Positions 32,712 to 60,843 of a DNA stretch of 64,000 nt are shown here, piece after piece. The position numbers and the translations under genes are program-made. This DNA is from an uncultured Gammaproteobacteria bacterium. GTDB taxonomy: Bacteria; Patescibacteriota; Patescibacteriia; SG8-24. The DNA lies in the NCBI GenBank assembly GCA_964491475.1, contig CAZBFO010000003.1, positions 72,766-136,765 of the forward strand, given 5' to 3'. The first letter of the stretch is position 1. Each line of letters starts with the position of its first letter. The notes beneath the pieces were generated by a model, which saw only the letters and a list, made by a program, of their open reading frames with translations, made no database searches and was not told the origin of the DNA.

Positions 32712-32812
32712 GCGGGGCTCGAATATTGCCAAACCAGCCTTGCAGGAATACCATGAAACTTCAAGGGACTATCCCCGTCAGTATGCCACATTTTGAGCCC
32801 AAAAGCAGCACT

Positions 32813-41189: not shown

Positions 41190-41195
41190 ACGGCG

Positions 41196-41816: not shown

Positions 41817-41823
41817 ACGGCGT

Positions 41824-43062: not shown

Positions 43063-43108
43063 AGCCTAATGGTAGCGCAAAATCCGGGTTCGGACCACGA
43101 GCCGACGT

Positions 43109-44524
43109 TTACTTGTACTCGCGCCAGGTGTCGGTCTTGATGTGCCAGCCTTGGCTGTTGCCGCTCGCAGCCACGTTTACCGGCGCGTTGAAGATGTTGA
43201 GGCCGCTGCTGTTGATTGCCGTATTCTGGTCGAGCACCACCTTGACCCCGACCACCGCCGGCACGCTGACGCCGTTGTTGGTGTGCACTTCGCCGTTCGG
43301 CGCATACAGGACGGCGCCGGTGACGTTGTTTTTGGCGTAGATGGCGGGGGACGAGTCCGTCACCGAGGTGTTGGTGCTGACTACGATGACGACGCTGCCG
43401 GTCGTGCCCGACCCCTGGATGTTGCCGTTGTTGTCGATGGTGATCTTGCCGTCCGCGATGATGACGCCGCTGGCGGCCCCAAAGGTCGAATCCAGCTTGA
43501 TGACGGAGTTGTTGCCGAAGGTGATGGTGCCGGTGACCCACAGCGGACCGTTCAGGGTGATGGTCGAGCCGTTGCCGAGCGCCAGGTTGCCGACGATCTT
43601 CTCCGCGTTCATGGTCGTCGAGCTGTTGTTGGCGGTCGTCAAGTCGCCGTTATATACGGTACCTGCGGCGGCGAGCCCCTCCCAATAAGAGAGGTCGAAG
43701 TTGGGCATGGCCACGGTCGAGGGCGTGGCGCTGTTGGGATGCTTGGTGCCGCTGACGGTCGAGCCGGCGATGCCCGTGATCGGAGTAAGGTAGTAGGCGT
43801 CCAGCGTGATGGTGTCGTTGCTCAAGATGTCGGCATAGCCGTTGCGGGTGATCTTGCAGCCGTCCACCTTGCCGCCGGAACGCGTCACCGAGACGTTGCC
43901 GCTGATCTTGGCGCCGTTGCTGCAGGTGATGTCGCCGACGGACGTCACGTCGCTGTCGGTGACGGTGTCGACGGTGTCGCCGTCACCGGTGATGGTGACG
44001 TTGTTAGCCGCGCCGATGCCGCTCGAGCCCGCCTGCACCGCCGCGGCCACGGTCATGGCGGTGGTCGGCGGCAGGTTGGTGACGTCGCTCTTGACGGTCT
44101 TGGTCTGCCCGGTGACCGACGTGCCGACCGAAGTGACGGTCCTGGTGCTGCTGTCGCCCGTAACGGTGACCGAGAACTTGCCGTTGCCCAGCGTGATGTT
44201 GCTCTGGCCGGTGTAGCTGGTGCCGTAGGTGCCGCCGCAGTTGGTTCCGCTGGTCGCCTTGGTGCAGTACAGCGCCTTGTGCAGTCCCGCCTCCGCAAGC
44301 TGTTCGGACGAAAGCGCCTGCTGGAAGACGTTGCCCACGAAGCGCGTGTTTATGGAAGAATTAAGGAGCACGAAGCTGAAGGCCAAAAGTATCCCCAGCA
44401 GGATGGTGGTCGACATCAGGGCGAAGCCGTCCTCGTCCAGGGAACAGTCCCTGAACAGGTCCACTTCCGTCCTCAAGCGTTGCGCCAACGTCAGTCCCTT
44501 CTTTTTCGTCGTTCGTCGCGGCAT
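43109..44524 (-). CDS. Large pilin-like protein: prepilin-type N-terminal helix followed by ~400-aa Ser/Thr/Gly/Asn-rich beta-helix-like region (putative minor pilin/tip adhesin)
   Basis: Hydrophobic GFALMSTTILLGILLAFSFVLL after a basic leader (no Glu at +5, as in GspK/PilX-type minor pilins). Repetitive ...GNGSTITLNGPLWVTGTITFGNNSVIKLD... Sits inside the pil operon. Confidence 0.55.
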   Translation of the reverse strand: MPRRTTKKKGLTLAQRLRTEVDLFRDCSLDEDGFALMSTTILLGILLAFSFVLLNSSINTRFVGNVFQQALSSEQLAEAGLHKALYCTKATSGTNCGGTYGTSYTGQSNITLGNGKFSVTVTGDSSTRTVTSVGTSVTGQTKTVKSDVTNLPPTTAMTVAAAVQAGSSGIGAANNVTITGDGDTVDTVTDSDVTSVGDITCSNGAKISGNVSVTRSGGKVDGCKITRNGYADILSNDTITLDAYYLTPITGIAGSTVSGTKHPNSATPSTVAMPNFDLSYWEGLAAAGTVYNGDLTTANNSSTTMNAEKIVGNLALGNGSTITLNGPLWVTGTITFGNNSVIKLDSTFGAASGVIIADGKITIDNNGNIQGSGTTGSVVIVVSTNTSVTDSSPAIYAKNNVTGAVLYAPNGEVHTNNGVSVPAVVGVKVVLDQNTAINSSGLNIFNAPVNVAASGNSQGWHIKTDTWREYK

Positions 44525-44527
44525 AGG

Positions 44528-45148
44528 TCAGTGATTACGTAAGAAAATCGAGGTCCACGTTTTGGTAGTCATGGTCGTGCCGCGCACGGTCTTCTGGTTC
44601 ACCAGGAATACGGAGATGCGGGTGGCGTTGTACGGGTGCCAGTTGTTGTAGCTGAACGTCAGGGTGTTGTTGTTGCCGGTCAGCAGTTTCTTGCCGTCGA
44701 CGCGGACGCTGGTGCCTGCCGAGCAGGTGACGTTGTTGATGTCCGTGTCGGTCCAGATCTGGGTGGTCGAGGTGGCGTGGCGGTAGATGGCGATGTAGTC
44801 CGAGCAGCCGGAGATGACGTTGCCCGAGGAGTCGAGCGAGGGCATCTGCAGCACCAGCGTGGTCGGCGAGGTGGTGTAAAGCGTGCCGTTGATGGTCTTG
44901 CTGGAAAGGACGTTGGTGGCGCCGCGGGTCAGTTCGCCCATGCGGCGCATGGCGAAGGTCGCGCCGTTGTCGTTGTCGATGCGCGCCAGCGCCTTGACCG
45001 TGTAGTCGTAGTCGACGCGGAAAATGTCGTTGATCATCACCATGATGATCATCATGATGCCCATGACGCAGATCAGCTCGATCATGGCCGCGCCGGAATC
45101 GCGGCTCGTCCGTCGTCGCACGCGCGCTCGGAGGCGGAGGAAAGGCAT
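44528..45148 (-). CDS. Type IV pilin-like protein
   Basis: Prepilin signature ...SGAAMIELICVMGIMMIIMV (G|A-A-M-I-E with Glu at +5). Confidence 0.65.
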   Translation of the reverse strand: MPFLRLRARVRRRTSRDSGAAMIELICVMGIMMIIMVMINDIFRVDYDYTVKALARIDNDNGATFAMRRMGELTRGATNVLSSKTINGTLYTTSPTTLVLQMPSLDSSGNVISGCSDYIAIYRHATSTTQIWTDTDINNVTCSAGTSVRVDGKKLLTGNNNTLTFSYNNWHPYNATRISVFLVNQKTVRGTTMTTKTWTSIFLRNH

Positions 45149-45163
45149 AGGCTATGGGCTATT

Positions 45164-46141
45164 CTATTGGGCGATGAGCGAATTGCCCGACACCGACTTG
45201 GAAACGCCGCCTTCGGTCCAGGTCACGGTGGCCGTGACCTGCTTGATGGTCGAGACGCCGAGGTAATCGGCGATGGTCAGGGTGCCGACGCCGCTGGGCA
45301 GGTCGAAGTACACGAACCGCTGCCAGTCGGTGGGCATCGAGCCGACGGTGTCGCTGTCGAAGTTCCAGCTGGTGGCGGTGCCGCTCTCGGTGATGCTGAC
45401 GTCGTCAACGTAGATCAGCGCGCCGGAAAGCGTCTGCAGGCCGGCGTCGCCGGTGGAGAAGGTGGAATCGGTGACGGTGGTCTGCAGCGTGCCGTTCTTG
45501 TACAGCGAGATGCCGGTGCCGCTGGTGACCACGCGGAGGGTGTACCAGGTGCCGGCGCTGTAGGTGGCGCTCTGCGACCACAGCGTGGTGACCGTGCCGT
45601 GGTAGACCTTGTCGAGCGCCAGTCCGCCGGAGGAATAGCGGTAGCGGTAGTGGTTTTCGGAGTCGCGGTAGTCGAACACCAGGCCCGCGCCCCAGCCGGA
45701 AGGGGAGCTGCTCAAGACGTCGAACTTGGCCGTCAGGTCCATGTCGGCATGATAGTTGCCGGGAATGACGGCCAAACCGGTCTCGCTGACCAGCGCCGTC
45801 TGCGCGGTTTCCATCGCCAGCGCGCGCGTGCCCGAAGGCGGGCTGGTGACCGTCTTCACCTTCCACGGGCCGCGTGTCAGTGACAGGCCTAGGAAGGCGC
45901 CGTTGGTGCGGTTGATCAGCTCGGTGAAGGAAAGCGTGCGCAGCGAGTCGATTTCCTCGCGCAGGAAGTTGCCGGCTTGGATGGCGTAAGTGGACTTGCG
46001 CAGCAGGTACGAGGCCGATATGGTCGAGGAAAAGACGGTAAGGATCACCGCCGCCATCAGTACGGTGACGATGGCTTCCATCAGCGTGAAGCCCGCAGTG
46101 GCCGACGGCCGTGCTGGCGAATGGAGGCGGGAACGGGGCAT
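45164..46141 (-). CDS. Type IV pilin-like protein (325 aa)
   Basis: Leader MPRSRLHSPARPSATAG then FTLMEAIVTVLMAAVILTVF, a class III signal peptide with G|FTLME. Confidence 0.7.
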   Translation of the reverse strand: MPRSRLHSPARPSATAGFTLMEAIVTVLMAAVILTVFSSTISASYLLRKSTYAIQAGNFLREEIDSLRTLSFTELINRTNGAFLGLSLTRGPWKVKTVTSPPSGTRALAMETAQTALVSETGLAVIPGNYHADMDLTAKFDVLSSSPSGWGAGLVFDYRDSENHYRYRYSSGGLALDKVYHGTVTTLWSQSATYSAGTWYTLRVVTSGTGISLYKNGTLQTTVTDSTFSTGDAGLQTLSGALIYVDDVSITESGTATSWNFDSDTVGSMPTDWQRFVYFDLPSGVGTLTIADYLGVSTIKQVTATVTWTEGGVSKSVSGNSLIAQ

Positions 46142-46148
46142 GCGGGCG

Positions 46149-47246
46149 TCAGTTGGATTCGGAGATCGATTGGGTCAGGGCGTAGATGGGCGTGATGACG
46201 GCCAAGGCGATGCCGCCGACCATGCCGCCGAGCATCAGGATCAGGATCGGCTCGATGATGGAGGAAAGGTTGCTCAACACCTGGTCGACCTGCTGCTCGT
46301 AGAAGGCGGCGATGTCGGAAAGCAGCTCGTCGACCGTGCCGGCGCGTTCGCCGACCAGCACCATCTGCACCAGCAGCGGCGGGAACAGGTTGCCGTGCGC
46401 GGCCAGGCTCCGGCCGATGCTCTCGCCCTTCTTGATGCGCTCGGCGGCGTCCAGCGTGGCGTCGCGGAAATGGACGTTGGCCAGCACCTGCGAGGTGACG
46501 TTGAACGCCTGGATGACCGGGATGTCGGTGTGCAGCAGGCCGGAAACGGTACGGGCGAAGCGCGCCAAGTTGACCTTGCGGGCGATCGGCCCGATGATCG
46601 GCGCGGAAATGATGACGCGATCCAAAAGGTAGGTGCCGATCTTGGTGCGGGCGAACATCACCAGGGCGGTGACGGTGACCGCTGCGCCGACGGCCACGAT
46701 GATGCCGTGATCGTGCGTGAAGTCCGTGATCTTGATGAGGATCTGGGTGGCCAGCGGCAGCTTGACGTTGCCGAATTCCTTGAAGACGCCGAGCAGCTTG
46801 GGCAGCACGAAGGTCACCAGCGCGATGACGATGCCGAGCATGGCCACGCAGACCACCACCGGGTAGGTCATTGCGCCCTTCACCTTGGAGCGGAGGTCGT
46901 AGTCCTTTTTCATCTGCTGGGTCAGCTCCTGAAGGACGTTTTCCAGCGTGCCGGAGACTTCGCCGATCTGGATCATGCTGACGAAGATGGACGGGAAGAT
47001 CTTGGGGAACTTGCCCAGCGAAGTCGAAAGGGGACGGCCGGCCTCGACGTCGGCCTTCACCAGACCGATGATCTTCTTGAAGGACTTCTTTTCGGCCTGC
47101 AGAGCCAAGGTGTTGAGCGCTTCGGAAATCGACAGGCCCGCATGGATCATCACCTTCAGGTTTTCCGTGAAAAACACCTTGTCGGTCAGCGGGACCGAGG
47201 AGTTGTACAGCAGGTAGTCGTTGAGACGTTGGACAAGCGAGGCCAT
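46149..47246 (-). CDS. pilC: Type IV pilus inner-membrane platform protein PilC (GspF family)
   Basis: Two T2SSF repeats, e.g. FSRQLATLLHAGIPL-like blocks ENLKVMIHAGLSISEAL and ARFARTVSGLLHTDIPVIQAF. Confidence 0.9.
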   Translation of the reverse strand: MASLVQRLNDYLLYNSSVPLTDKVFFTENLKVMIHAGLSISEALNTLALQAEKKSFKKIIGLVKADVEAGRPLSTSLGKFPKIFPSIFVSMIQIGEVSGTLENVLQELTQQMKKDYDLRSKVKGAMTYPVVVCVAMLGIVIALVTFVLPKLLGVFKEFGNVKLPLATQILIKITDFTHDHGIIVAVGAAVTVTALVMFARTKIGTYLLDRVIISAPIIGPIARKVNLARFARTVSGLLHTDIPVIQAFNVTSQVLANVHFRDATLDAAERIKKGESIGRSLAAHGNLFPPLLVQMVLVGERAGTVDELLSDIAAFYEQQVDQVLSNLSSIIEPILILMLGGMVGGIALAVITPIYALTQSISESN

Positions 47247-47264
47247 AGCGCGGTGATGAGGCGT

Positions 47265-49046
47265 TTAGTCGCGGGTGACGCGGAGAATCTCCTCGATGGT
47301 CGTGACGGCCTTCACCGCCTTGGCAAAACCGTCCTCGATCATGGTGATCATGCCCTCCTCGATGGCCGCCTGCTTGAGCTCGTCGGCGTTGGCCTTCTTG
47401 TTGACCAGCTTCTGCAGATTGGGCGTGAACTCGATGACCTCGTAGATGCCCATGCGGCCCTTGTAGCCTTCGTTGCCGCACTGGGCGCAGCCGGAGCCGC
47501 GCCAGAAGGTGGTGTCCTCGATCTTCTGGTTCGCGGCGACGATTTCTTCCTTCTTCAGCTTGGCCCAGATGCCGTCGAGATCGATCTGTTCGCGCAGCTG
47601 TTCCAGGGCGTGGTCCGGCAGCTTGTAGGAGCGGACGCAGTTGGGGCAGATCTTGCGGACCAGACGCTGGGCCACGATCATGTTGGCCGTGAACGAGATC
47701 AGGAACGGCGGCACGTTCATGTCGAGCAGGCGGGGGATGGAGGTGGCGGCGTCGTTGGTGTGCAGCGTGCCCATGACCAAGTGGCCGGTCATGGCGGCCT
47801 GCACGGCGATGCCGGCGGTCTCTTCGTCGCGGATTTCGCCGACCAGGATGATGTTGGGGTCCTGGCGCAGCAGCGAACGGAGGCCGGCGGCGAAGGTGAA
47901 GCCGATCTTGGAGTTGACTTGGCTCTGGTTGATGCCCGCCAGGCGGTATTCCACCGGGTCTTCCACCGTGGAGATGTTGACCTTGGGCGAGTTGAGCATG
48001 TTCAGCACCGAGTACAGCGTCGTGGACTTACCGGACCCCGTGGGTCCGGTGACAAAGATGATGCCGTGCGGCTTTTTCATGTTGCGCAGCACGATGTCGT
48101 AGGCCTTCTTCTGGAAACCGAGCTGCTCCAGGGTGAGCGGCTTGGTGCCTTCGGACAGCAGACGCATGACGATCTTCTCGCCGTCGTAGACCGGGAGGAT
48201 GGAGACGCGGAGGGCGAACTTGTAGTTGGGGTTGTCGATCTTGAAGCGGCCGTCCTGCGGCAGGCGGTGCTCGTCGAGCTTGAGGTTGGAGAGAATCTTT
48301 ATGCGCGCCACGATGCCCGAGGCGACGACCTTCTGGAAGGTCATCACCGGCTTGAGCACGCCGTCGACGCGAAAGCGCACGATGACTTCGGTCTCGCTGG
48401 GCTCGATGTGGATGTCGGAAGCGCCTTCCAGTACCGCGTGTTCCAAAATCGAGTCGACCACGCGGACGATCGGGATGTCTTCGGCCAGCTTGGAGAGCTT
48501 GTCCTCTTCGTCCTCCTCGCCAGGCTTGTTCTTTTTTATGGCGGTGAGTCCTCCCAGTTCCGCCGAGAGGCTCTGCTTGTACTGCTTGATGGCTTCCTCG
48601 AAGGAGCTGGGGTTGGTGTAGAACACCTTCAGCTTCAGGTTGGTCTTGCGTTTGATGAACTCAAAGGTCTGCAGGTCGGTGGGCTCCATCGTGGCCACGC
48701 GCAGCTCGTCGTCGGTCTTCTCGAAGGAAATCAGCTTGTGCGAGGCGGCGATGGGCTCGGGAATAAGGAAAAGGATGTCCTGGCGGATGGGGACCTCGCG
48801 CAAGTTGATGAACGGCAACTTGTAGAACTGCGCGGCGATGCGGTAGAGCATCTCTTCCGGCATCTTCTTCTCCTTGATGAGGTAGGTCTCCAGCTGCATG
48901 TTGGGGTCCTTCTCCTTGGCCTCCTTCAGGAGCTGGTTGATGCCCTTCATGTCGAAAGTGGCCGTCTCGCGCAGGATTTTCTTGAGCAGTTCGTTGTTCA
49001 GCATAAGGCGGGTGTGGGCATGCTTCGATGCCCCGAATTTTACCAC
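47265..49046 (-). CDS. pilB: Type IV pilus assembly ATPase PilB (GspE family)
   Basis: Walker A VTGPTGSGKSTTLYSVL. Asp box, His box and tetracysteine CPNC...CAQC present. N-terminal T2SSE_N region. Confidence 0.9.
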   Translation of the reverse strand: MVKFGASKHAHTRLMLNNELLKKILRETATFDMKGINQLLKEAKEKDPNMQLETYLIKEKKMPEEMLYRIAAQFYKLPFINLREVPIRQDILFLIPEPIAASHKLISFEKTDDELRVATMEPTDLQTFEFIKRKTNLKLKVFYTNPSSFEEAIKQYKQSLSAELGGLTAIKKNKPGEEDEEDKLSKLAEDIPIVRVVDSILEHAVLEGASDIHIEPSETEVIVRFRVDGVLKPVMTFQKVVASGIVARIKILSNLKLDEHRLPQDGRFKIDNPNYKFALRVSILPVYDGEKIVMRLLSEGTKPLTLEQLGFQKKAYDIVLRNMKKPHGIIFVTGPTGSGKSTTLYSVLNMLNSPKVNISTVEDPVEYRLAGINQSQVNSKIGFTFAAGLRSLLRQDPNIILVGEIRDEETAGIAVQAAMTGHLVMGTLHTNDAATSIPRLLDMNVPPFLISFTANMIVAQRLVRKICPNCVRSYKLPDHALEQLREQIDLDGIWAKLKKEEIVAANQKIEDTTFWRGSGCAQCGNEGYKGRMGIYEVIEFTPNLQKLVNKKANADELKQAAIEEGMITMIEDGFAKAVKAVTTIEEILRVTRD

Positions 49047-49558: not shown

Positions 49559-50611
49559 ATGTCCCCGCTTGCCACCATCAAGATCTTGCTGCTCACCACC
49601 TTGTCGTTCGTCACGGCCATCCTCTGGACGCCGCTGCTCACCAATTTCCTGTTCAAATACAAGCTCGGCAAGCAGATCCGCACCGCCGAGTCGGCCCCGA
49701 TTTTCTCCAAGATGCATCAGGGCAAATCCGGTACGCCGACCATGGGCGGGGTGCTGATCTGGGGCACGACTCTCGCGCTCATCTTGGCGTTTCACGAGGC
49801 CAATCTGCTTGTCGGCGGCGCGTTCTTCGGCACCATGGACTTCCTCTCGCGCCAGCAGACGCTGCTGCCGCTGGGCGCGCTGGTCGCCTCGGCCATCGTC
49901 GGGCTGGTGGACGACTACTGGAACGTGCGTCGGCTCGGTCCCAAGGGCGGGGGATTGCGCATGCGTCACCGGCTGCTCCTGTACACGCTGATTGCCGCCG
50001 TCGGCGCCTGGTGGTTCTCCAGCAAGCTCGACTGGGACCTGTTCCGCATCCCGTTCGTCGGCTCATACAACATCGGTCTCTGGTACATTCCGGTATTCAT
50101 CCTGGTGATCGTCTCCACCTCGTTCTCGGTGAACGAGACCGACGGCCTCGACGGTTTGGCGGGCGGAGTGCTGCTGTCGTCGTTCGCGGCCTACGCGGCC
50201 ATCGCCTTCATGCAGGGGAAGACCGACTTGGCCGCGTTCTGCGGCGTCATCTGCGGCGCGCTGCTGGCCTTCCTGTGGTTCAACATCAATCCGGCACGGT
50301 TCTTCATGGGCGATACCGGCGCGATGTCGCTGGGCGTCACCTTGGGCATCGTGGCCATGCTTACCAACACGGCGCTGATCCTGCCGGTCATCGGGCTGGT
50401 GTTCGTCCTGGAGTCGCTGTCGGTCATCATCCAAGTGGGTTCCAAGAAGCTGCGCGGCAAGAAGGTGTTCCTGTCGGCGCCGGTCCACCATCACTTCGAG
50501 GCCATCGGATGGAGCGAACCGAAGATCGTGATGCGCTTCTGGATCATCGCTTCCGTCTCGTCGGTGCTGGGCCTGGTGTTCGCGCTCATCGACGCCGGTT
50601 ATTTCAACTAA
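49559..50611 (+). CDS. mraY: Phospho-N-acetylmuramoyl-pentapeptide transferase
   Basis: KSGTPTMGGVLIW...NETDGLDGLAGG...DTGAMSLG...HHHFE MraY motifs. Confidence 0.9.
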   Translation: MSPLATIKILLLTTLSFVTAILWTPLLTNFLFKYKLGKQIRTAESAPIFSKMHQGKSGTPTMGGVLIWGTTLALILAFHEANLLVGGAFFGTMDFLSRQQTLLPLGALVASAIVGLVDDYWNVRRLGPKGGGLRMRHRLLLYTLIAAVGAWWFSSKLDWDLFRIPFVGSYNIGLWYIPVFILVIVSTSFSVNETDGLDGLAGGVLLSSFAAYAAIAFMQGKTDLAAFCGVICGALLAFLWFNINPARFFMGDTGAMSLGVTLGIVAMLTNTALILPVIGLVFVLESLSVIIQVGSKKLRGKKVFLSAPVHHHFEAIGWSEPKIVMRFWIIASVSSVLGLVFALIDAGYFN

Positions 50612-50623
50612 CGCCTTCGCCAC

Positions 50624-53038
50624 ATGGGAAATTCCGACAACAACACGGTTGACCTGTTCAAGGGCGACGGCGACGAGAAGCGCCTGCCGGTGATTCCGCT
50701 GCGCGATACGGTGGTATTTCCGCGCGTGGCCACGCCGATCGTGGTGCGCCGCGAAAGGTCGCGCAAGGCGTTGGAAGAGGCCATGCGCCGTAACCGCATG
50801 GTGGTGCTGGTGGCCCAGCGCGACCCCGAAGCCTCCGACCCCAAGCCGGAACAGCTGTACTCCGTGGCCACCATCGCCAAGATCCGCGAGTCCACCAAGC
50901 AGAAGGACAAGACCATGCGCGTGGTGGTCGAGGGTTTGGCGCGCGTACGCCTGCGCGACCTGCAAGCCGACGCCGACTGCCTGCATGCCGACGTGCAGGC
51001 GATGCCCGAACCGACGGTGAAGAAGACGGAGCGGATAGAGGCGCTGATGTACAGCGCACTGAACCAGTTCCGCCGCGTGGTCAACATGGGCGCCAACGTC
51101 CCCTTCGACGCGCTTTTGGTGATCATGAACGTGGTCGATCCATGGCTGTTCGGCGACCTCATCGCCGCCAACCTGGAGATGAAGGTGGACGAGAAGCAGG
51201 CGATTTTGGAATCCGAGGACATCGATCACAAGTTGGATGCCGTCGGCCATGCGCTGGCGCGGCAGATCAAGCTGCTGCAGATGGCCACCAAGATCCAGCA
51301 GGAAACCGGCAAGGAGCTCGACAAGATGCAGCGCGAGGTGTTCCTGCGCGAGCAGATGAAGTCCATCGAGAAGGAGCTCGAGGGCATGGGCGGCAAGACC
51401 GACGCCGACGACCTCAAGGAGAAGCTGGACCGCGCCGACCTTCCGCCCGCCGCCAAGGAGAAGGCGATGAAGGAGTACGACCGCATGAAGGCCATGCCGT
51501 CGTTCAGTCCCGAAATTTCCTACTTGCGCACCTACCTGGAGTGGCTGGCGGACCTGCCGTGGAACAAAAAGGACGATTCGGTCATCGACATCGTCGCGGC
51601 CAAGAAGATTCTCGACGCCGATCACTTCGGCCTGGCCAAGGCAAAGGAGCGCATCGTCGAATACCTGGCGGTCGGCAAGCTGGTGGGCCGCATCCGCGGA
51701 CCCATCCTGTGCTTCGTCGGGCCGCCGGGCGTGGGCAAGACTTCCATCGGCAAGTCCATCGCCAAGTCGCTGGGCCGCAAGTTCTTCCGCATGAGCCTGG
51801 GCGGCGTCCGCGACGAGGCCGAGATCCGCGGGCATCGCCGCACTTACGTGGGCGCCTTGCCCGGCCGCATCATCCAGGGGATTGCCAACGTCAAGACGCG
51901 CAACCCCGTGTTCATGCTCGACGAGATCGACAAGGTCGGCAACGACGCCTTCCGCGGCGACCCGTCGGCGGCGCTGCTCGAAGCGCTCGACCCCGAGCAG
52001 AACAACGCCTTCTCCGATCATTATCTTGAGCTGCCGTTCGACTTGTCCGACGTGCTGTTCGTGACCACGGCCAACATGCTGGACACCATTCCGCCCGCGC
52101 TGCGCGACCGCATGGAGGTCATCGAGTTCCCCGGGTATACGGATGAAGAAAAGGTGCAGATCGCCGAGCGGCACCTGATTCCCAAGGCGATCAAGGACAA
52201 CGGGCTGACCGTCAGGCAGTGCGTCTTCACCCCGCCCGCGGTGCGCGCCATCATCCGCCTGTACACGCGCGAGGCCGGCGTCCGCAATTTGGAGCGCGAG
52301 ATTTCCGCCGTCTGCCGCAAGGTGGCACGGGCCGTTGCCGAGAAGAAAACCAAACGCCGCACCATCGCGCCTGCCGACTTGGCCGCGTTACTGGGGCCGG
52401 CGCGGTTCAGCGAGACGCTCAAGGAAGCCAAGGACGAAGTGGGCGTGGTCACCGGCCTTGCCTGGACCGAGGCCGGCGGAGAGATTCTGCAAATAGAGGC
52501 CACCAAGATGGCCGGCCGCGGCAACCTGACGCTCACCGGCCATTTGGGCGAGGTGATGCAGGAGTCGGCCAAGGCGGCCTTCTCGCACGTGCGGTCCATC
52601 GCCAACGACATGGGCGTCACCGGCGACTTCACCAAGGACGCCGACGTGCACGTGCACGTGCCCAGCGGCGCCATTCCCAAGGACGGCCCCTCTGCCGGCC
52701 TGGCCATCGCCACCGCGCTCGTGTCGATGATCACCGGCCGCAAGGTGCGCCGCAACGTCGCCATGACGGGTGAAATCACCTTGCGCGGCAAGGCGCTGGA
52801 GATCGGCGGCGTGAAGGAAAAGGTGCTGGCCGCATACCGCGCCGGCATCGAGACGATCATCCTGCCCGCCGAGAACAAGAAGGACTTGGTCGACGTGCCT
52901 GCGGAAATCCGCAAGAAGCTCAAGTTCATCTTCGTGAAGGACCTGGCTGGCGTGCTGGCACAGGCGTTGGAACCGGCAACGGCCGCAAAAAAAGCCGAAC
53001 CCGAGAACATGGCCCGGAAGAAAAAGAAAAAGGCCTAA
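50624..53038 (+). CDS. lon: ATP-dependent Lon protease
   Basis: LON N-terminal domain [24 protein letters not shown]+ [15 protein letters not shown]. Protease domain [17 protein letters not shown]...[12 protein letters not shown] (Ser-Lys dyad). Confidence 0.95.
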
Positions 53039-53041
53039 GGT

Positions 53042-54172
53042 ATGTTCCAAAAGAGACCGGACGCGAAGTTCCTGGTGCTGCTCTGCGCCCTGCTGGCGCT
53101 CGGCTTGGTGATGCTGACTTCCGCGTCCGGCCCTTTGGCGTTCGAGAAGTTCAACGACCCGTACTGGTACATCAAGCACCAGCTGTTGAACGGGCTGCTG
53201 CCCGGCATCATCTTGTTCGTGATTTTCGCGGCAATCGACTACCGCCATTGGCTCACTTGGTCGTCCAAGTTCCTGTACGCCTCGGTGGCCGCGCTGCTGC
53301 TGGTGTTCATTCCCGGCTTGGCGGCGGACTGGGGCACTTCCAAAAGCTGGATCCACGTCTTCGGCGTGTCGGTGCAGCCGGTCGAGGCGGTCAAGCTGCT
53401 GCTGCTGCTGTACTTGGCCGCGTTTTTTTCGCGCCGTGACGATGAGGCGATGCGCGACAGGCAGATGACGCTGGTGCCGTTCGTGACTTCGGTCGGCGCA
53501 GTCGCCGTGCTGCTGATGCTGCAGCCCGACCTCGGCAGCTTGCTGGTGGTGTCGTCCATCGCGCTTGCCGCATATTTCGTGGCGGGCGCGTCGCTGCTGC
53601 ATCTGGGCGGCTTGCTCCTCGCCGGTGCCGCCGGCGTGCTGGTGCTGGTGAAGAGCGCCCCGTATCGCGCCGCGCGCCTGATGACCTTCATGCATCCCGG
53701 CCTCGACCCGCAAGGCGTCGGCTACCACATCAACCAGGCTTTCTTGGCCATCGGTTCCGGCGGCTGGTTCGGCTTGGGGCTGGGCCACTCGCGGCAAAAG
53801 TACATGTACCTGCCGGAGGTCGCCGGCGACTCCATCTTCGCCGTCATGGCCGAAGAACTCGGCTTCATCTTCATGCTGGCAGTCGTGGCGCTGCTGGTGG
53901 CGTTCATGCTGCGCATGCTCAAGATCGGCCGCGAGGCGCCCGACAAGTTCGGCAAAATCGTCGCCATCGGCATAGTCGCCTGGGTATTCAGCCAGACGCT
54001 GTTCAACGCCGGCTCGATGGTCGGCATCATGCCCATCACCGGCCTGCCGATGCCCTTCATCAGCTACGGCGGCACGTCGCTGGCCGTATTAATGGCAGCC
54101 ATGGGCATCCTGGCCAACATCTCCTCGCACGCCGAACCGAGCGCGACTCCATCTCGCCGTCGCGACCGCTAG
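53042..54172 (+). CDS. ftsW: SEDS-family peptidoglycan glycosyltransferase (FtsW/RodA)
   Basis: 10 TM helices. SEDS motifs ...GFIFMLAVVALLVAFML...PITGLPMPFISYGGTS. Located between mraY/lon and murG. Confidence 0.85.
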   Translation: MFQKRPDAKFLVLLCALLALGLVMLTSASGPLAFEKFNDPYWYIKHQLLNGLLPGIILFVIFAAIDYRHWLTWSSKFLYASVAALLLVFIPGLAADWGTSKSWIHVFGVSVQPVEAVKLLLLLYLAAFFSRRDDEAMRDRQMTLVPFVTSVGAVAVLLMLQPDLGSLLVVSSIALAAYFVAGASLLHLGGLLLAGAAGVLVLVKSAPYRAARLMTFMHPGLDPQGVGYHINQAFLAIGSGGWFGLGLGHSRQKYMYLPEVAGDSIFAVMAEELGFIFMLAVVALLVAFMLRMLKIGREAPDKFGKIVAIGIVAWVFSQTLFNAGSMVGIMPITGLPMPFISYGGTSLAVLMAAMGILANISSHAEPSATPSRRRDR

Positions 54173-54187
54173 CACTTCTCTGGGACG

Positions 54188-54310
54188 TGGGTCCGGAGGC
54201 CTCCTCTGGACACGCTTGCGGACGCGCTGCGGCGCGTCCTCGCTCGTCCTCGCGTAAAGTCGGCTGCGGCCGACTTTCGCTGCGGATGGTCCAGAGGAGG
54301 CCTCCGGACC
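54188..54310. repeat. Palindromic structured element 1: perfect 23-bp inverted repeat GGGTCCGGAGGCCTCCTCTGGAC enclosing two GC-rich hairpins
   Basis: Outer arms 54188-54210 and 54288-54310 are exact reverse complements. Inner hairpins GGACGCGC-TGCG-GCGCGTCC and AAAGTCGGC-TGCG-GCCGACTTT. Confidence 0.7.
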
Positions 54311-54341
54311 CTCGTCCCCGAAACCGCGTGGCGGATTGGGG

Positions 54342-54492
54342 GGGCCGCGAGGCGGAGCAGGCGCGGCTGGAGGGGAGTTCGCAGGACAAAAATCGTCCGC
54401 AGACGATTTTTGGACGAGAGTAAGGTGCGGATTTTGCCCGCAGGCAAAATCCGACACCGACCCCTCCAGCCGCGCCTGCTCCGCCTCGCGGC
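54342..54492. repeat. Palindromic structured element 2: perfect 33-bp inverted repeat GGCCGCGAGGCGGAGCAGGCGCGGCTGGAGGGG enclosing two hairpins
   Basis: Outer arms 54342-54374 and 54460-54492 are exact reverse complements. Inner hairpins AAAAATCGT-CCGCAG-ACGATTTTT and CGGATTTTGCC-CGCA-GGCAAAATCCG. Confidence 0.7.
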
Positions 54493-54561
54493 CTTGGCTC
54501 CACCACGTTTTTGGGACAAGATGACCGCGGCGCTTCTTCGCCATTCAAAAGGGAAAGTCGT

Positions 54562-55641
54562 ATGCGCATAGTGTTTACCGGCGGCGGGTCGCTTGGGCCC
54601 GTGACGCCGCTCATTGCGGTGATGCACGAGATTCGTCGGCTTCGGCCAGACGCCTCTTTTTCGTGGATCGGCACGGAGGGCGGCGTGGAGGAGAGGTTGG
54701 TGAAGGAGGAGCACCTGCCCTTCAACGCCATTTCTTCGGGGAAGCTGCGCCGCTACTTTTCTTGGAAGACGTTCGTCGAGCCGCTGAACGTGGCTCGCGG
54801 TTTCTTTCAGGCGCGCAGGTTTCTTCGCGCCGAGGGGGCTGACGCGGTGGTGAGCGCCGGCGGGTTCGTGGCGGTGCCGGTCGCCTGGGCGGCATGGTCA
54901 TTGGGGATTCCGGTGCATGTGCATCAGCAGGATGTCATTCCGGGGTTGGCCAACCGGCTGACCCTGCCAGTGGCCAAGTCGCTGTCCGTGACGTTGGAGA
55001 AATCCGTGAAGGATTTTCCGGGGCACAAGGCGGTCTGGACCGGCAATCCGGTGCGGGCCGAAGTGCTTTCGGGGTCGCGCGAGCTGGCGCTGTCGTCGTT
55101 CGGGCTTGAACGCGGCGTGCCGGCGGTGCTGATCGTCGGCGGCGGCACGGGAGCCACGGGGCTGAACAAGCTGGTGTGGCCGATGTTGCACGTACTGACT
55201 GATCGCGCCGAAATCATCCACTCCGCGGGTCTCGGCAAAGCCGATTCGTCGAGGAAGATGGCGCGCTACCATCAGTTCGAGCTGCTCACCGGCAACATGC
55301 CCGAGGCGCTGGCGGTGGCCGACGTTGTCGTGACCCGCGCGGGAATGGGGCAGCTGACGGAGCTGGCCGCGCTCGGCAAGCCGACGGTCATCATCCCGAT
55401 GCCGGGCAGCCATCAGGAAGCCAATGCGGAAGCGTTCGGCGCGGGCGGGGGAGCGATCGTGCTTGACCAGCGCGAAACCACGCCGGAAACTTTCGCCGCG
55501 ACGGTCGCCGTGATGCTTGACGATGCCGCCGGACGGGCCCGGATGGCCAAGAAAATGCAGGCGATGCACCTGCCCGACGCGGCAGAACGCATTGCCAAAA
55601 CCGTCATCGGACTTGCCGACGGCCACCGAAAGCGGCGATAG
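54562..55641 (+). CDS. murG: UDP-N-acetylglucosamine--N-acetylmuramyl-(pentapeptide) pyrophosphoryl-undecaprenol N-acetylglucosamine transferase
   Basis: MRIVFTGGGSLGPVTPLIAV...VVSAGGFVAVPVAWAAWSLGIPVHVHQQD...VVVTRAGMGQLTELAALGKP MurG motifs. SD AGGGAAAG upstream. The longer ORF from 54511 would read into the palindromic element. Confidence 0.85.
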   Translation: MRIVFTGGGSLGPVTPLIAVMHEIRRLRPDASFSWIGTEGGVEERLVKEEHLPFNAISSGKLRRYFSWKTFVEPLNVARGFFQARRFLRAEGADAVVSAGGFVAVPVAWAAWSLGIPVHVHQQDVIPGLANRLTLPVAKSLSVTLEKSVKDFPGHKAVWTGNPVRAEVLSGSRELALSSFGLERGVPAVLIVGGGTGATGLNKLVWPMLHVLTDRAEIIHSAGLGKADSSRKMARYHQFELLTGNMPEALAVADVVVTRAGMGQLTELAALGKPTVIIPMPGSHQEANAEAFGAGGGAIVLDQRETTPETFAATVAVMLDDAAGRARMAKKMQAMHLPDAAERIAKTVIGLADGHRKRR

Positions 55642-55742: not shown

Positions 55743-55994
55743 ATGGCAGAAAGTATTCGAGAATCCGTTCGCAAGCGCCTCTTTGACGCTCGTCGCTGCA
55801 GCGACCCGTCGGCCTTGCTCAAAATGCTGGGCATGCACGTAAGCCGCCCCATGCTCGGTCCCGATGACCTGTCGGGCCTCACCGACCGGCAGGCGCAAAA
55901 GGCGCTTGATTTCCTGGACCGCTGGTTCCCGGACCGCTCGCTGAAACGCATCAGCGTCATCTGCGCCAAGGCACAGGCCGCCATCCGGCCATGA
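55743..55994 (+). CDS. Small hypothetical protein (about 83 aa)
   Basis: Plausible SD AGAGGA upstream of MAESIRE. No recognised domain. Codon usage is consistent with neighbours. Confidence 0.35.
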   Translation: MAESIRESVRKRLFDARRCSDPSALLKMLGMHVSRPMLGPDDLSGLTDRQAQKALDFLDRWFPDRSLKRISVICAKAQAAIRP

Positions 55995-56039
55995 CACGGC
56001 AACCGTTCGGTTGTCGTTTTTTTATTTTCCCAGTAGTCT

Positions 56040-58352
56040 TTGAGGGCTATGAGCGAATTGCCAAAGGAAGTGCCGATTGCCGAATTGGGAGCCAGGCGCG
56101 ACCAGCCGAAGATTGCCAAGTTCAACGAGCGCGCGGGCGACCTCGATCGCCGCCAAGAAGCCGGCGAAGACGTGTCCAAGGAGCGCGAGAAGCTCGACAT
56201 CGAACGCGAGACTTTTTATTACGAGCGCGACAATACCGGCGCCATCGTCCGCGACCGCTGGGGCGGAGACATCGTAGAGTCGTTTCGGGAAGAAGGGGAG
56301 CGTCTCAAGGAGCTGGAACCGAACGGCAAGATCAAGCCGAAAGAGTCTGACGAGCGCCAGCACGTGATGATGGTGGCAATGGCCGAGCTGGACCGTCTCA
56401 ATGACGAGGGCGGCCACGGCGGCGGCGACGCTTCATTGGAAAAGACTGCCGCCAACATCGAGGCGGTGATCGAAAAAGTGATGAGTGCCAAAGGCGCCGG
56501 CGGCAGCGTGGGCGAAAATGCCAGCTATGAGGTGTATCGTTACGGGGGCAACCAGTACGCCGTCGACCTCAAGGACATGGCTCCAGAGGCGGTCGCCGAA
56601 ATCACCGGGCTCCTGCGCAAACTCTCCGACAAGGAGCGCATTCCCGCGTCCTTGGAAAAGTCCGTAAAGGAGGCGCCGCCATTGGTGATCAGCAGCTTGA
56701 GCCGCAAGGAGCAGGTGACCATGATGAACAGCATTCAGGAGAAGCTGGCCGGGGCAGGACTGCAGCATTACGAAGGCGGAAAGGAGATGAATCGCGCCAT
56801 GGTCGACCTCGTGGCCAAGGCCAGCGACCTCGACATGGACATGGCGAAATTCGCCAACCGTGCCGAACGCGTCATGGAGAAAGTGGCGCGCGGCGACGCC
56901 GACGCCGACGCTTTTTTCGACAAATACATGAAGAAGGGCCTGGCCGGCAGCGCCTTCAGCTCGATTGAATCGTTCAAGAGCTTCATCGGTCCCGACGGCA
57001 AACAGACTCCCGAGTTCGCCTCGGCAGTGAGCGCCGAGGCCTCAAAGTCAGCCGCCCAGTGGTTGGCTTTGAGCAGCGCCGAGGCGGCTGACCGCGAGGT
57101 GATGGTCGCCCAAGTGGTCGCCAAGCTTCATGGCGCCACCTTGCCCGAGGTTCCCAGGGCCGAACGGTCCGGTGCCAGCGCCAATCGCGAGCTGCCCGAG
57201 CCGGAACTCGAGGGCAAGAAGCTGCTCGACCAACTCAAGGCCGAGGCCTCCGGCGCCGACGGCGATCTCGCAGAGCTGAAGCTCGGGCGAGAGAAGGCCA
57301 AGCGCGACGCGCTCACCGGCCTCGAAAAGCGCCGCACGTTCTACCTTGACCTCCGCGACCGGCTGACTCCCGACGAAGAAGGGAAGATCAAGGACACCTC
57401 CGTGGTGTTCATCGACATGGCCTTCCTCAAGTACTTCGACAAAGAAGGCGGAGCCGAAGTGGGCGACGCGGCCATCAAGCAGGCAGCCTGGGCGCTCGAA
57501 GAAGTGCAGCGCCGCATGGCCGCCAAAGGCATCGAGGTGAAGGCGCATCGCTATGCCGGCGACGAGTTTACCTTCACCGTCGACGGCGACCACGATGCCG
57601 CACGGCAGCTGACCGAAGAGCTGACCAAGGTTTCCAACGAGATTCCGCCGTTGCCGCGCCAGGCCACGTCCACCGACGCCTACGTCGACGCCGGCCTGTC
57701 ATTTAACTTCGGCGTCGCCGACGCCAAGGACCTGATGGTGCTGGAGCGCCGCATGCGCGAGCAGAAACTGGTGCCGCCCGAAGTCGACTCGAGCCCCGAA
57801 GCGCTGGCCAAGTGGCGGTCGGAGATGATCACCACCATGGCCGACGCCGGCGTGAAGGAGCAGAAGGCGCTCAACCGCTTCATGCAGCTGTACAACAAGC
57901 TGGCCGACGAGGAGCAGTTCAAGGAATCGCTCAAGTCGCAGGGCTTCAGCGACGAGCAGATCGACAACGGCATCAAGCGCCTGGTCGACTATTCGGAGAA
58001 GGCCCTCGGCAACAAGGGCAAGGACCTCAAGCGCTGGGTTGGCGAGGAGCGCATCGGTCCGGAAGAGCTGCTCAAGCGCGCCCAGGAGTCCATCAGCGAG
58101 CAGCAGCAGGGCGAGCTGAAGGAGAAGCGAGCCAAGATGGTCATCACCGACTTGGTGATCGAGTCAGGCGTGCACGAGGCCCGCTTTGACCGCGAAATCG
58201 CCGCGCAGAAGCGGCAGATGGCCGAGGTCGAGGCGCAGTACGGGCAGGAGCACGCCAAGTACCTGGCCATGAAGGACCGCATGACCAAACTCGAGACCGA
58301 GAAGGCGGACATGCTCAAAAAATACCTGGGCGGCATCGAGCAGCCCAAATAG
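56040..58352 (+). CDS. Large (770 aa) highly charged, predicted coiled-coil-rich cytoplasmic protein with a central degenerate GGDEF (AGDEF) diguanylate-cyclase-like domain
   Basis: RDALTGLEKRRTFYLDL...VVFIDMAFLKYFDKEGGAEVGDAAIK...HRYAGDEFTFTV follows the GGDEF domain order (DxLTGLxNRR ... DxD..FK..ND..GH..GD ... RYGGEEF). No TM segments. E/K/A/D-rich flanks. Confidence 0.7.
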   Translation: MRAMSELPKEVPIAELGARRDQPKIAKFNERAGDLDRRQEAGEDVSKEREKLDIERETFYYERDNTGAIVRDRWGGDIVESFREEGERLKELEPNGKIKPKESDERQHVMMVAMAELDRLNDEGGHGGGDASLEKTAANIEAVIEKVMSAKGAGGSVGENASYEVYRYGGNQYAVDLKDMAPEAVAEITGLLRKLSDKERIPASLEKSVKEAPPLVISSLSRKEQVTMMNSIQEKLAGAGLQHYEGGKEMNRAMVDLVAKASDLDMDMAKFANRAERVMEKVARGDADADAFFDKYMKKGLAGSAFSSIESFKSFIGPDGKQTPEFASAVSAEASKSAAQWLALSSAEAADREVMVAQVVAKLHGATLPEVPRAERSGASANRELPEPELEGKKLLDQLKAEASGADGDLAELKLGREKAKRDALTGLEKRRTFYLDLRDRLTPDEEGKIKDTSVVFIDMAFLKYFDKEGGAEVGDAAIKQAAWALEEVQRRMAAKGIEVKAHRYAGDEFTFTVDGDHDAARQLTEELTKVSNEIPPLPRQATSTDAYVDAGLSFNFGVADAKDLMVLERRMREQKLVPPEVDSSPEALAKWRSEMITTMADAGVKEQKALNRFMQLYNKLADEEQFKESLKSQGFSDEQIDNGIKRLVDYSEKALGNKGKDLKRWVGEERIGPEELLKRAQESISEQQQGELKEKRAKMVITDLVIESGVHEARFDREIAAQKRQMAEVEAQYGQEHAKYLAMKDRMTKLETEKADMLKKYLGGIEQPK

Positions 58353-58357
58353 GAAGA

Positions 58358-58388
58358 AAAAACCGGCATAATCCACCGGTTTTTTGGC
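58358..58388. terminator. Hairpin AAAAACCGG-CATAATCCA-CCGGTTTTTTGG after the GGDEF-like gene
   Basis: Stem with an A-run and a T-run. Confidence 0.5.
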
Positions 58389-58442: not shown

Positions 58443-58667
58443 ATGGAGAATCTCACACTTAATCTCGAGGAGTTGTACGAACAGGTAAAGGATCGCGCCT
58501 TCACGGAGGGCGCCTTCGCGCGCGAGGAATGGGACGACATCGTTGACGACCTGCTCGACTCCAAACGCGAGTTCGAGGAGATCAGCGACGACGTCGACTG
58601 GGAAGAAATCCGCGAGGCCCTTCGCGCCAAGTACGACGACTTCGAAGCCGACATCCCCGAGGTCTAG
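58443..58667 (+). CDS. Small very acidic protein (74 aa), hypothetical
   Basis: Promoter-like TTGCAT-16nt-TATAGA at ~58389-58416. Product MENLTLNLEELYEQVKDRAF...DDFEADIPEV has a pI far below 4. tRNA-Lys follows 72 nt downstream. Confidence 0.4.
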   Translation: MENLTLNLEELYEQVKDRAFTEGAFAREEWDDIVDDLLDSKREFEEISDDVDWEEIREALRAKYDDFEADIPEV

Positions 58668-59670: not shown

Positions 59671-60843
59671 TCAGGGGAAGAGGTAACGGTACGTCGCGCG
59701 GTAGATCTCGACGTACTTCACCGTTTGGGGAAAGAGGCCGTGGCCGTCTTTTTCCCAGTTGGCGGGGTCGTCGGTGAGGGCTCGGGCCGCTTTCTCTTCG
59801 CCGCCGTTGTAGGCGGCGGCCAGGAAGGCGCCGAGGTCTTCCTCGTTCTGCTGCAGACGGCGCAGGTGCCGTTCGGGCAGGCGGGTCAGTGACCAGTCGG
59901 CCAGGCAGAACTGGGCGCAGACGGCGCTCTCGTGATCGGTCATGCCCTGCACGAAGTCCTCGGGCAGGCGCGCGCGCGGGTAGCGCTTGCGCGTGATGTC
60001 GTAGGTGCTCTGGATGAACTGGGCCAAGCCGCGCGCCTTGGCGTAGGAGACGGCATAGCGGTAGGCGTCCTCGCGGTTGGTGGCCAGCACCGTCAGCACC
60101 TTGCCGCCTTCCGGCCCGATGCCGCCGCTGTCGAAGTCGTCGGGATTCACATGCTCCACCACCAGCAGTGTCGCCAAGATCTTCCAGGGCACGGTGTCGG
60201 TGGGGCGTTTCGCCGGATCGAGCTGCGACGGGACGTCGTTGGCGTTGAGCCGTTCGGTGCCGCGCTTGACCAGGTCGAGCAGGTACTCGCGGCCGGAGCG
60301 CACGCTTTCGGCGTTGCGCAGGGCGGGGGAGAACGGCACGTACACCGCGGGCACGGGGAAGCCGTGACGGCGCGGGTGGTTGACGTTGGTCTTGAGCGCG
60401 ATGACCACGTGGTCGGCGGGCAAGTTCACCTGGTACTGCGAGTTGACGCCGTTGGGGCGCACTATGGTGATGTCGCAGTCGCGGCTGCGGCAGGTGCCGT
60501 CGGTCATGGTGACCAGGCGGATGGGGCCGCAGGCGGTGGGGTTCCACAGCGCCAGGATGGCGTTGTCGCCGCCGATTTTGCCGGTCAGCAGCGGCGTGAC
60601 ATGCAGCATCGCCTTGGCCTCCTCGATTTTGCCGAGGAGCTGGTGATGCGAACGTCGCGCGGCCGGGTCAGCCTGGGCCGCCAGCGTCGGTGCCGGTACC
60701 ACGCGCACGGCCTCTTCCGGCGGCGCCGGATCGGCCTGCGACGGCGCGGGCGGTGCGGGTTCCCGTTCGCGCCTGGCGTGGCACGACAGTCCGGTCACGA
60801 GCGGCAGGCAGCAGAAAGCGAAAAGAGCGATACGTTTTGCCAT
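59671..60843 (-). CDS. Exported hypothetical protein (390 aa), possibly with a lytic-transglycosylase-like C-terminal region
   Basis: Signal peptide MAKRIALFAFCCLPLVTGLSC. C-terminal ...DHESAV...AAAYNGG is faintly reminiscent of SLT-domain ES...AYNAG motifs. Weak. Confidence 0.5.
   Translation of the reverse strand: MAKRIALFAFCCLPLVTGLSCHARREREPAPPAPSQADPAPPEEAVRVVPAPTLAAQADPAARRSHHQLLGKIEEAKAMLHVTPLLTGKIGGDNAILALWNPTACGPIRLVTMTDGTCRSRDCDITIVRPNGVNSQYQVNLPADHVVIALKTNVNHPRRHGFPVPAVYVPFSPALRNAESVRSGREYLLDLVKRGTERLNANDVPSQLDPAKRPTDTVPWKILATLLVVEHVNPDDFDSGGIGPEGGKVLTVLATNREDAYRYAVSYAKARGLAQFIQSTYDITRKRYPRARLPEDFVQGMTDHESAVCAQFCLADWSLTRLPERHLRRLQQNEEDLGAFLAAAYNGGEEKAARALTDDPANWEKDGHGLFPQTVKYVEIYRATYRYLFP

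Follow-up and report, generated by a model that had tools for sequence, protein, structure and literature searches.

In the stretch of DNA analysed here, 64,000 nucleotides of a contig from an uncultured bacterium (CAZBFO010000003.1; hereafter the window), the gene at positions 56040-58352 on the plus strand encodes a protein with two GGDEF domains in tandem. The two domains are, according to their sequence profiles, an internal tandem duplication, in which the first copy appears to be catalytically dead and the second catalytically competent. The protein belongs to an unnamed family that is found nearly entirely in Patescibacteria, and its gene is accompanied by a small upstream partner gene and an intergenic hairpin. 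A sequence-only reading of the gene had described a 770-aa, highly charged, coiled-coil-rich protein with a central degenerate GGDEF (AGDEF) domain, no sensor or membrane domain and a non-standard architecture. The frame, the charge and the lack of a membrane domain agree with our results, and the architecture is indeed non-standard, though as a tandem of a pseudo-GGDEF and a GGDEF domain and not as one GGDEF fold embedded in a giant coiled-coil protein.

The list of open reading frames (ORFs) gives the gene 770 aa from a TTG start. The database copy (P0001) is an identical protein of 767 aa, and a GAGGG Shine-Dalgarno sequence precedes the ATG at 56049; thus the real start is probably this ATG, the gene running from 56049 to 58352. 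Residue numbers are those of the 770-aa frame, counted from the TTG at 56040. D, E, K and R make up 34.8% of the protein, which has a net charge of -24 and an isoelectric point (pI) of 5.2, and no transmembrane segment was found in it (maximum Kyte-Doolittle value of a 19-residue window 0.92). The AlphaFold2 (AF2) model, obtained with the family alignment as input, is compact (mean predicted local distance difference test score, pLDDT, 82.9; predicted template modelling score, pTM, 0.81), with two alpha/beta cores at the expected places.

The central domain (residues ~416-622; 57285..57905, plus strand) is a GGDEF domain, as the earlier reading had proposed. It scored 68.5 bits against the Pfam GGDEF model (PF00990, cut-off 23.8) and 53 bits against TIGR00254 (cut-off 37.4), its sequence matches in the PDB were WspR, PleD and other solved diguanylate cyclases, and the best 50 PDB matches in Foldseek were all GGDEF domains (WspR, DgcB, SiaD, DgcR and others, with template modelling scores up to 0.75 normalised by target). 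The motifs RDALTGLEKRR, VVFIDMAFLKYFDKEGGAEVGD and HRYAGDEF are all present in the order originally read, with the AGDEF signature at 57555-57569 and D459 within the stretch FIDMAFLKYFD. In an alignment of 15 family sequences the corresponding landmarks are RDxLTGL, FIDMAFLKYFDKEGG and RxGGDEF. The extent of residues ~400-560 given earlier was too short at its end, as the domain continues to about residue 620, where its last helix (AD602..K609..R613) follows an insertion.

Residue conservation was counted in 91 full-length relatives, and the roles of the metal ligands, the general base acting in trans and the phosphate binders were taken in PleD numbering from the literature (PMC6456294). In the central domain both Mg ligands (D459, PleD D327; D508, PleD E370), the general base in trans (E509, PleD E371), the second signature glycine (G507, PleD G369) and the phosphate-binding Lys and Arg (K609, PleD K442; R613, PleD R446) are found in 91/91 members, R504 in 90/91 and K464 (PleD K332) in 88/91. 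The central domain thus keeps all its catalytic, metal-binding and phosphate-binding residues and is apparently catalytically competent, and the conservation of these residues at 96-100% among relatives with an overall identity of 25-30% would be hard to explain without catalysis. This runs counter to the idea of a degenerate remnant that serves as a receptor or scaffold. The first signature glycine (PleD G368) is Gly in 74, Ala in 16 and Ser in one of the 91 members, giving the signatures GGDEF, AGDEF and SGDEF, with Ala (A506) in the window protein; no member has Glu at the third signature position, which is Asp throughout. AGDEF, which departs from the strict GG[D/E]EF motif but is a tolerated variant, is therefore a minority state in a mostly GGDEF family and deserves less weight as a sign of degeneracy than it had been given. 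The accompanying remark that AGDEF variants can retain activity was correct, since the AGDEF diguanylate cyclase VCA0965 of Vibrio cholerae is active (PMC3974145) and a change from Gly to Ala at the first signature position thus need not abolish activity. VCA0965 and the window protein are alike in having AGDEF together with intact acidic residues, whereas the overall architecture of VCA0965 is unrelated and only 16/91 members of the tandem family carry AGDEF. It had also been proposed to check the active site and the inhibitory site (I-site): the active-site residues are intact, while the RxxD I-site, looked for 4-6 residues before the signature, is absent in all members (0/91), the window protein having KGIEVKAHRYAGDEF there.

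The N-terminal ~400 aa had been read as E/K/A/D-rich and predicted helical. Instead, residues ~62-285 (56223..56894, plus strand) make up a second, degenerate GGDEF domain, which was detected by Pfam and hhalign and has a beta-alpha core in the AF2 model. Residues 1-405 alone scored 27.3 bits against the Pfam GGDEF model, above the same cut-off of 23.8, with the match at residues 101-206. The window motifs are VAMAELDRLNDEGGHGGGD followed by RYGGNQY, with the GGNQY signature at 56544-56558, and the family landmarks of this domain in the 15-sequence alignment are HDxTGA, VNMGELDRLNxxGGHxxGD and YRxxGN[DE]F. When the N-domain was aligned with the central domain by hhalign, the match had a probability of 98.3% (E 1.6e-14, 183 columns), and with wider boundaries, about residues 55-315 against 420-665, 98.6% (E 1.3e-15, 231 columns). 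This profile-profile match of the two regions indicates that the protein arose by internal tandem duplication. In the duplicated unit a stalk helix leads to a GGDEF core that contains an insertion, and a long helix and then a YxxK helix come after it; the ancestor of this unit would have been about 260-350 aa long.

The two copies have had different fates. At the position of the first Mg ligand (PleD D327) the N-domain has Asn in 61, Ser in 9, Ala in 8 and Asp in 5 members (A113 in the window protein), and at the second (PleD E370) it has Asn in 78/91 (N171), so both metal ligands are replaced. The trans general-base position (PleD E371) is Asp in 36, Glu in 35 and Gln in 9 members (Q172), and the first signature glycine (PleD G368) is Gly in 29, Ser in 24, Ala in 17 and Asp in 11, with the second (PleD G369) kept as G170 in 78/91. 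The base and phosphate binders are retained: N121 (PleD N335) in 91/91, D130 (PleD D344) in 80/91, K270 (PleD K442) in 82/91 and R274 (PleD R446) in 81/91; D118 stands in 82/91 at the position of PleD K332. By these residues the N-domain is catalytically dead, and because the metal ligands are lost and the residues for base and triphosphate are kept, its site is most likely one that binds guanine nucleotide without turning it over. Failure against GGDEF profiles and loss of the metal-binding Asp/Glu residues had been named as marks of a non-catalytic remnant of the fold; the central domain shows neither, and the N-terminal copy shows the loss of ligands but still passes the profile.

A conserved heptad pattern is limited to the C-terminus. 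The heptad-repeat segment at residues ~701-768 (58140..58343, plus strand) has a high heptad contrast in 79/91 relatives as compared to 7/91 shuffled sequences, and AF2 places long helices there with lower pLDDT. The other heptad-like stretches are two amphipathic helices, both inside the GGDEF units, which leaves residues ~701-768 as the only convincing candidate for a coiled coil and, judging from the heptads, a probable dimerisation element. The description as coiled coil thus probably suits this segment, but not a giant protein of that kind. The remaining parts of the chain are helical. A hairpin of two helices (residues ~12-61; 56073..56222, plus strand; H19-40 and H46-61 in the AF2 model), with 46.7% D/E/K/R, leads into the first GGDEF-like unit. 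A linker or middle domain (residues ~286-415; 56895..57284, plus strand), delimited by the family alignment and AF2, has a conserved YxKK motif (K299) and G392 and ends in the stalk helix before the central GGDEF domain. The C-terminal helical domain (residues ~623-700; 57906..58139, plus strand) contains a Y-S652-x-K654 motif, with S652 and K654 in 100% of the 91 members, and this YSxK after the central domain duplicates the YxKK after the N-domain. Neither the linker nor the C-terminal helical part had similarity to PDB or Pfam entries.

Directly upstream of the enzyme gene lies a small gene on the same strand (55743..55994), which encodes 83 aa from the Met codon at 55743, or 90 aa in the longest ORF from 55722. 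The database copy of the window gene product has 83 aa (P0173), and the databases call it a hypothetical protein. A small same-strand gene (81-113 aa) was directly upstream in all of the eight contigs first examined (8/8). All-against-all phmmer linked the window copy with those of loci L008, L006, L001 and L004 (E 1e-9 to 1e-5), and an iterated hidden Markov model (HMM) found the partner in 50/72 loci, with exactly one match per locus. All of these matches share the strand of the enzyme gene, and most lie 30-200 nt upstream of it. The count of loci is a lower bound, and divergent copies were recognised by eye in L003, L011, L013, L015, L017 and L034. The small partner had no Pfam or PADLOC match, and its AF2 model, of no more than moderate confidence (pLDDT 66), is an all-helical protein of five helices for which Foldseek found no matching fold in the PDB.

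The two genes are separated by a terminator-like hairpin (55996..56027, plus strand; -13.1 kcal/mol), which has a GC-rich stem of 9 bp, a TTCG loop and a T-run. An equivalent hairpin with a T-run was found in 39/43 loci as compared to 75/224 control same-strand spacers (33%; Fisher p = 1e-12), and shuffled sequences gave a mean of 9.7/43, while the hairpin sequences themselves are not conserved among the loci. As the T-run lies only ~20 nt from the ATG at 56049, the enzyme gene is probably transcribed by read-through of the hairpin, which may be an attenuator or a full terminator, or may set the ratio of the two products.

The family was delimited with a profile search over 1.84 billion representative sequences. 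At E < 1e-30 it returned 125 representatives, of which about 90 are full length. The order of N-domain followed by C-domain was present in 112 of the 118 representatives of at least 600 aa, which is a lower bound for the number of tandem representatives in the family. Curated models gave only generic GGDEF domain matches (Pfam, NCBIfam), and the database records are named diguanylate cyclase or not at all. In species-representative genomes 63 loci were found, and their record titles are mostly Patescibacteria group, Candidatus Uhrbacteria, Parcubacteria and Candidatus Paceibacter; the few outlying, automatically labelled bins are probably mis-assigned. Together with the order kept in nearly all long representatives, this range over 63 species-level genomes points to purifying selection on the whole architecture. 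By the record titles of related loci, by synteny and by base composition, the window is placed in a sub-lineage of high GC content (57-66%) which includes Parcubacteria bacterium SG8_24 and has in common the order murG, small gene, tandem-GGDEF gene. Many third-party annotation metagenome bins (L012, L016, L023, L026, L034, L038, L043, L056, L058, L059, L065-L067 and L069) are titled uncultured Gammaproteobacteria bacterium and contain the Patescibacteria-type gene and synteny; L013 is titled Vicinamibacterales and L017 Acutalibacteraceae. Such titles look like automatic or erroneous taxonomic labels.

The interpretation that we favour, with a confidence slightly short of even, is that the protein is an active GGDEF-class cyclase with a regulatory dead copy, which dimerises by its coiled coil and is controlled by the partner and the hairpin. 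It would be a soluble, cytoplasmic nucleotide cyclase of a Patescibacteria-specific family, in which the second copy (~416-622), by its residues, would bind GTP-Mg and catalyse the formation of the phosphodiester, the product most likely being cyclic di-GMP (c-di-GMP). The first copy (~62-285) would most likely bind guanine nucleotide without turnover and thereby act as a built-in GTP-sensing regulatory module. This role is suggested by analogy with CC3396 (PdeA), whose degenerate GGDEF domain binds GTP and regulates the neighbouring domain, as has also been proposed for FimX (PMC2952852). In CC3396 a dead GGDEF domain with its substrate-binding residues still in place sits on the same chain as an active domain of c-di-GMP metabolism, as seems to be the case for the N-domain here; however, the regulated domain there is an EAL phosphodiesterase, whereas here it would be the live GGDEF domain of the same duplication. 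The C-terminal coiled coil would probably join two chains and thereby allow their live half-sites to meet. Control would come from the dead domain, the small helical partner and the hairpin, which probably limits read-through between the two genes, instead of from product inhibition at an RxxD site.

Canonical diguanylate cyclases (WspR, PleD, DgcB, DgcR) have the same fold and the same catalytic, metal and phosphate residues as the central domain, and they share with it the helix that leads into DxLTGL. In contrast to them, the family lacks an I-site as well as any receiver, PAS, GAF or membrane sensor, its sugar-face Asn is usually Asp, and it has the insertion before the last helix. It also adds a dead GGDEF copy upstream and a helical extension with the invariant YSxK, and its coiled coil is C-terminal, not N-terminal, to the catalytic domain. 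Dependence on a small, separately encoded protein is known from the SiaC-SiaD pair (PDB 7e6g); the cyclase of this pair, SiaD, has a stalk helix and was also among the Foldseek matches of the central domain. Unlike SiaC, the partner described here has no detectable similarity to solved structures or Pfam families, and its putative interaction with the enzyme is suggested by conserved adjacency only.

Several observations weigh against the cyclase as we have outlined it. Of the 91 central domains, 76 have Asp and 15 have Asn at the position of the sugar-face Asn (PleD N335; D467 in the window protein), while 55 have Asp, 36 have Asn and none has Ser or Thr at that of the Watson-Crick Asp (PleD D344; D476 in the window protein). 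With this altered base-reading pair, guanine specificity, and hence c-di-GMP as the product, is not assured. In 71/91 members the N-domain has an acidic residue at the trans general-base position, and a purely allosteric N-domain would have no obvious need for it. The pTM of 0.81 in the model, together with the tandem origin, would fit pairing within one chain at least as well as pairing between two. It had been suggested to search for c-di-GMP effectors; within the 64-kb window crude regular expressions found no PilZ, EAL or HD-GYP motifs, and no c-di-GMP riboswitch was found, the Rfam scan giving only the tRNA-Lys. MshEN domains are c-di-GMP receptors, and the window encodes one in a PilB-type ATPase (47265-49046, minus strand; T2SSE 430 bits, MshEN 47.4 bits). 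The binding motif, which we take to be RLGxx(L/V/I)(L/V/I)xxG(L/V/I)(L/V/I), is not intact in it, as the regular expression found no RLGxxLLxxGLL and the best-aligned stretch by eye is QLETYLIKEKKM (Arg to Gln, Gly to Glu, Gly to Lys).

Some of these points lead to another arrangement, which has a real though minority chance of being correct, namely that the dead N-terminal and the live central GGDEF domains of one chain face each other as an intramolecular pseudo-dimer. The N-domain would then hold the acceptor nucleotide with the attacking 3'-OH and the central domain the donor GTP-Mg, and the product would be a linear dinucleotide of the pppGpG type, or a cyclic di- or oligonucleotide made by stepwise relocation as in Cas10. 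In this arrangement the coiled coil would have a part in higher-order assembly or localisation and none in catalysis. Duplication of a normally homodimeric unit is the classic route to a pseudo-dimer, the AF2 prediction for the 770 aa is one confident, compact body, and the N-domain seems to retain the binders of base and triphosphate and to have lost only the metal ligands, with the trans-acting acidic residue still in place in most members. A degenerate palm, a helical insert, an active palm and a helical C-terminal domain follow one another in the chain, an order that, like the length of ~770 aa, also parallels Cas10, in which Palm1 binds the acceptor ATP and Palm2 (GGDD) the donor, and cyclic products are formed sequentially by one chain (PMC11417356). 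Cas10 (Csm1/Cmr2) is likewise a single chain of ~750-800 aa with two palm/cyclase domains, of which only the second has the signature (GGDD there, GGDEF here), and the domains are separated and then followed by helical domains. However, there is no detectable sequence or Foldseek similarity between the two beyond the generic palm fold, and the tandem family has no HD domain, zinc finger, CRISPR or effector-complex association or defence-island context. Both of its domains are bona fide GGDEF domains by Pfam, and the facing geometry is only putative. The full picture would be a single-chain, Cas10-style cyclase that is a core signalling enzyme of Patescibacteria with vertical inheritance, makes a linear 5'-triphosphorylated dinucleotide or a cyclic nucleotide other than c-di-GMP, and is controlled by the small protein and a transcriptional attenuator; in our estimate this is rather unlikely.

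The altered base-reading pair could alternatively mean that the cyclase uses ATP or mixed purines and produces cyclic GMP-AMP (cGAMP), c-di-AMP or another dinucleotide. This concerns the product alone and is compatible with either geometry. Besides the counts at the two positions, it is consistent with the signature, which always has the shorter Asp and is never GGEEF: according to the 'Goldilocks' model the shorter Asp is required for non-canonical residues at the Watson-Crick face (PMC6456294). The lack of a recognisable c-di-GMP effector in the window, within the reach of crude regular expressions and an Rfam scan, fits it as well. The Hypr GGDEF enzymes such as GacA (PMC6456294) share with the tandem family a non-canonical base-reading pair that always occurs with GGDEF and not GGEEF. 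However, the Ser/Thr that is diagnostic for Hypr enzymes at the Watson-Crick position (GacA S348) is replaced by Asp (55) or Asn (36) in the family, whose change is mainly at the sugar-face Asn. Moreover, D476 of the window protein is the Watson-Crick Asp, the driver of GTP specificity in mutants of GacA and WspR (PMC6456294), and an Asp at the sugar face could still be a hydrogen-bond acceptor for the N2 amine of guanine. Altered specificity seems improbable.

That the protein is a non-catalytic scaffold, or a receptor for GTP or c-di-GMP with a remnant GGDEF domain, is very improbable: it could draw on the AGDEF signature of the window protein, on the high charge and largely helical nature of the chain outside both cores and on the N-terminal pseudo-enzyme, but the near-invariant central catalytic residues among such distant relatives, the small coiled-coil content and the missing RxxD, which takes away the usual receptor mode of degenerate GGDEF domains such as PopA (PMC2952852), all argue against it. 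A giant coiled-coil scaffold was rejected, given that heptads are conserved only at ~701-768 and that AF2 predicts a compact body with two alpha/beta cores, and so was a c-di-GMP receptor acting through the I-site.

Patescibacteria (also called the Candidate Phyla Radiation) are a very large, mostly uncultured and host-dependent branch of bacteria with minimal genomes, and to our knowledge almost nothing is known of their second-messenger signalling. A full-text literature search returned no paper on GGDEF or c-di-GMP in Patescibacteria or the Candidate Phyla Radiation, and a search for proteins with tandem GGDEF-GGDEF domains returned only GGDEF-EAL hybrids or statements on dimers. The family is a new architectural variant of the GGDEF class, conserved over a major uncultured lineage together with its partner gene and hairpin. 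A conserved, syntenic GGDEF enzyme in such reduced genomes implies that nucleotide signalling has been kept for something important, and the combination of a dead and a live copy, no classical sensor, no site for product inhibition and a small partner suggests a control logic unlike that of the textbook. If the dead domain senses GTP, the enzyme could adjust behaviour such as pilus-mediated attachment to the supply of nucleotides from the host. If instead the domains pair within one chain, the rule of GGDEF homodimerisation would change, with a mechanistic link to Cas10, and this would be the first GGDEF enzyme to work without homodimerisation. The family offers a defined and testable entry point, as it comprises a single soluble protein, for which the point mutations to make are clear, and a partner with which it can be co-expressed.

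The neighbours of the gene differ between loci and are mainly housekeeping genes (dnaE, thrS, murG, ribosomal proteins). In the window ftsW and murG (TIGR01133, 253 bits) are upstream, as had been noted for murG, although the enzyme gene does not follow murG directly, the 83-90-aa gene and the hairpin being in between. Downstream are, as described earlier, a 74-aa acidic protein and tRNA-Lys. Across the loci dnaE is upstream in 22/67 and a class II aminoacyl-tRNA synthetase similar to threonyl-tRNA synthetase is near 46/67. The frequent neighbours seem to reflect inherited gene order and not functional coupling. A functional link to murG or cell division was rejected, as murG is upstream in only 7/67 loci, and a defence-system cyclase was rejected on the lack of a PADLOC match and the housekeeping synteny. 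A protein of ~403 aa with an N-terminal transmembrane helix is encoded directly downstream and on the same strand in 32/67 loci, usually with thrS next (for example L001:10455-11624, L004:10442-11710, L006:8745-9953 and L007:4654-5919). It matched no Pfam family and, in most of the family, may belong to the module as its third component; neither it nor a homologue is present in the window, and the protein is also absent from the window's clade.

Immediately 3' of the stop codon is another hairpin (58357..58385), flanked by an A-run and a T-run and thus of a bidirectional terminator-like type, which was reported on the minus strand and has a plus-strand fold of -13.2 kcal/mol. The 74-aa acidic protein (58443..58667, plus strand; pI 4.05) had no Pfam or NCBIfam match. 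In L022 and L040 a homologue comes next after the GGDEF gene, and in L017 and L011 one lies downstream at a distance of 2-3 kb (E 1e-16 to 1e-29). The conservation of the protein does not extend beyond the high-GC clade of the window, and for this reason it was rejected as a part of the module.

A complete type IV pilus cluster (40551-49046, minus strand) lies 7 kb upstream of the tandem-GGDEF gene. Besides the PilB-type ATPase it encodes, all on the minus strand, PilC (46149-47246), two pilin-like proteins (45164-46141 and 44528-45148), an unassigned protein of 471 aa, PilM (41824-43062), PilN (41196-41816) and PilO (40551-41189). A tRNA-Ala (cgc) of 84 nt called by ARAGORN at 31806-31889 is below the Rfam tRNA gathering score and lies inside a long ORF (31362-32732, minus strand) with high G+C at third codon positions, and is probably a false positive. 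The genes for the cell wall and division are interrupted, with MraY (49559-50611), a full-length Lon protease (50624-53038), FtsW (53042-54172) and MurG (54511-55641) and no murD within 49559-55641, an order that is unusual for a division and cell wall (dcw) cluster. Just downstream of tRNA-Lys, on the minus strand (59671-60843), is a gene for a protein of 390 aa, the N-terminus of which resembles that of a lipoprotein and which weakly matches the SLT domain (lytic transglycosylase; E 0.001).

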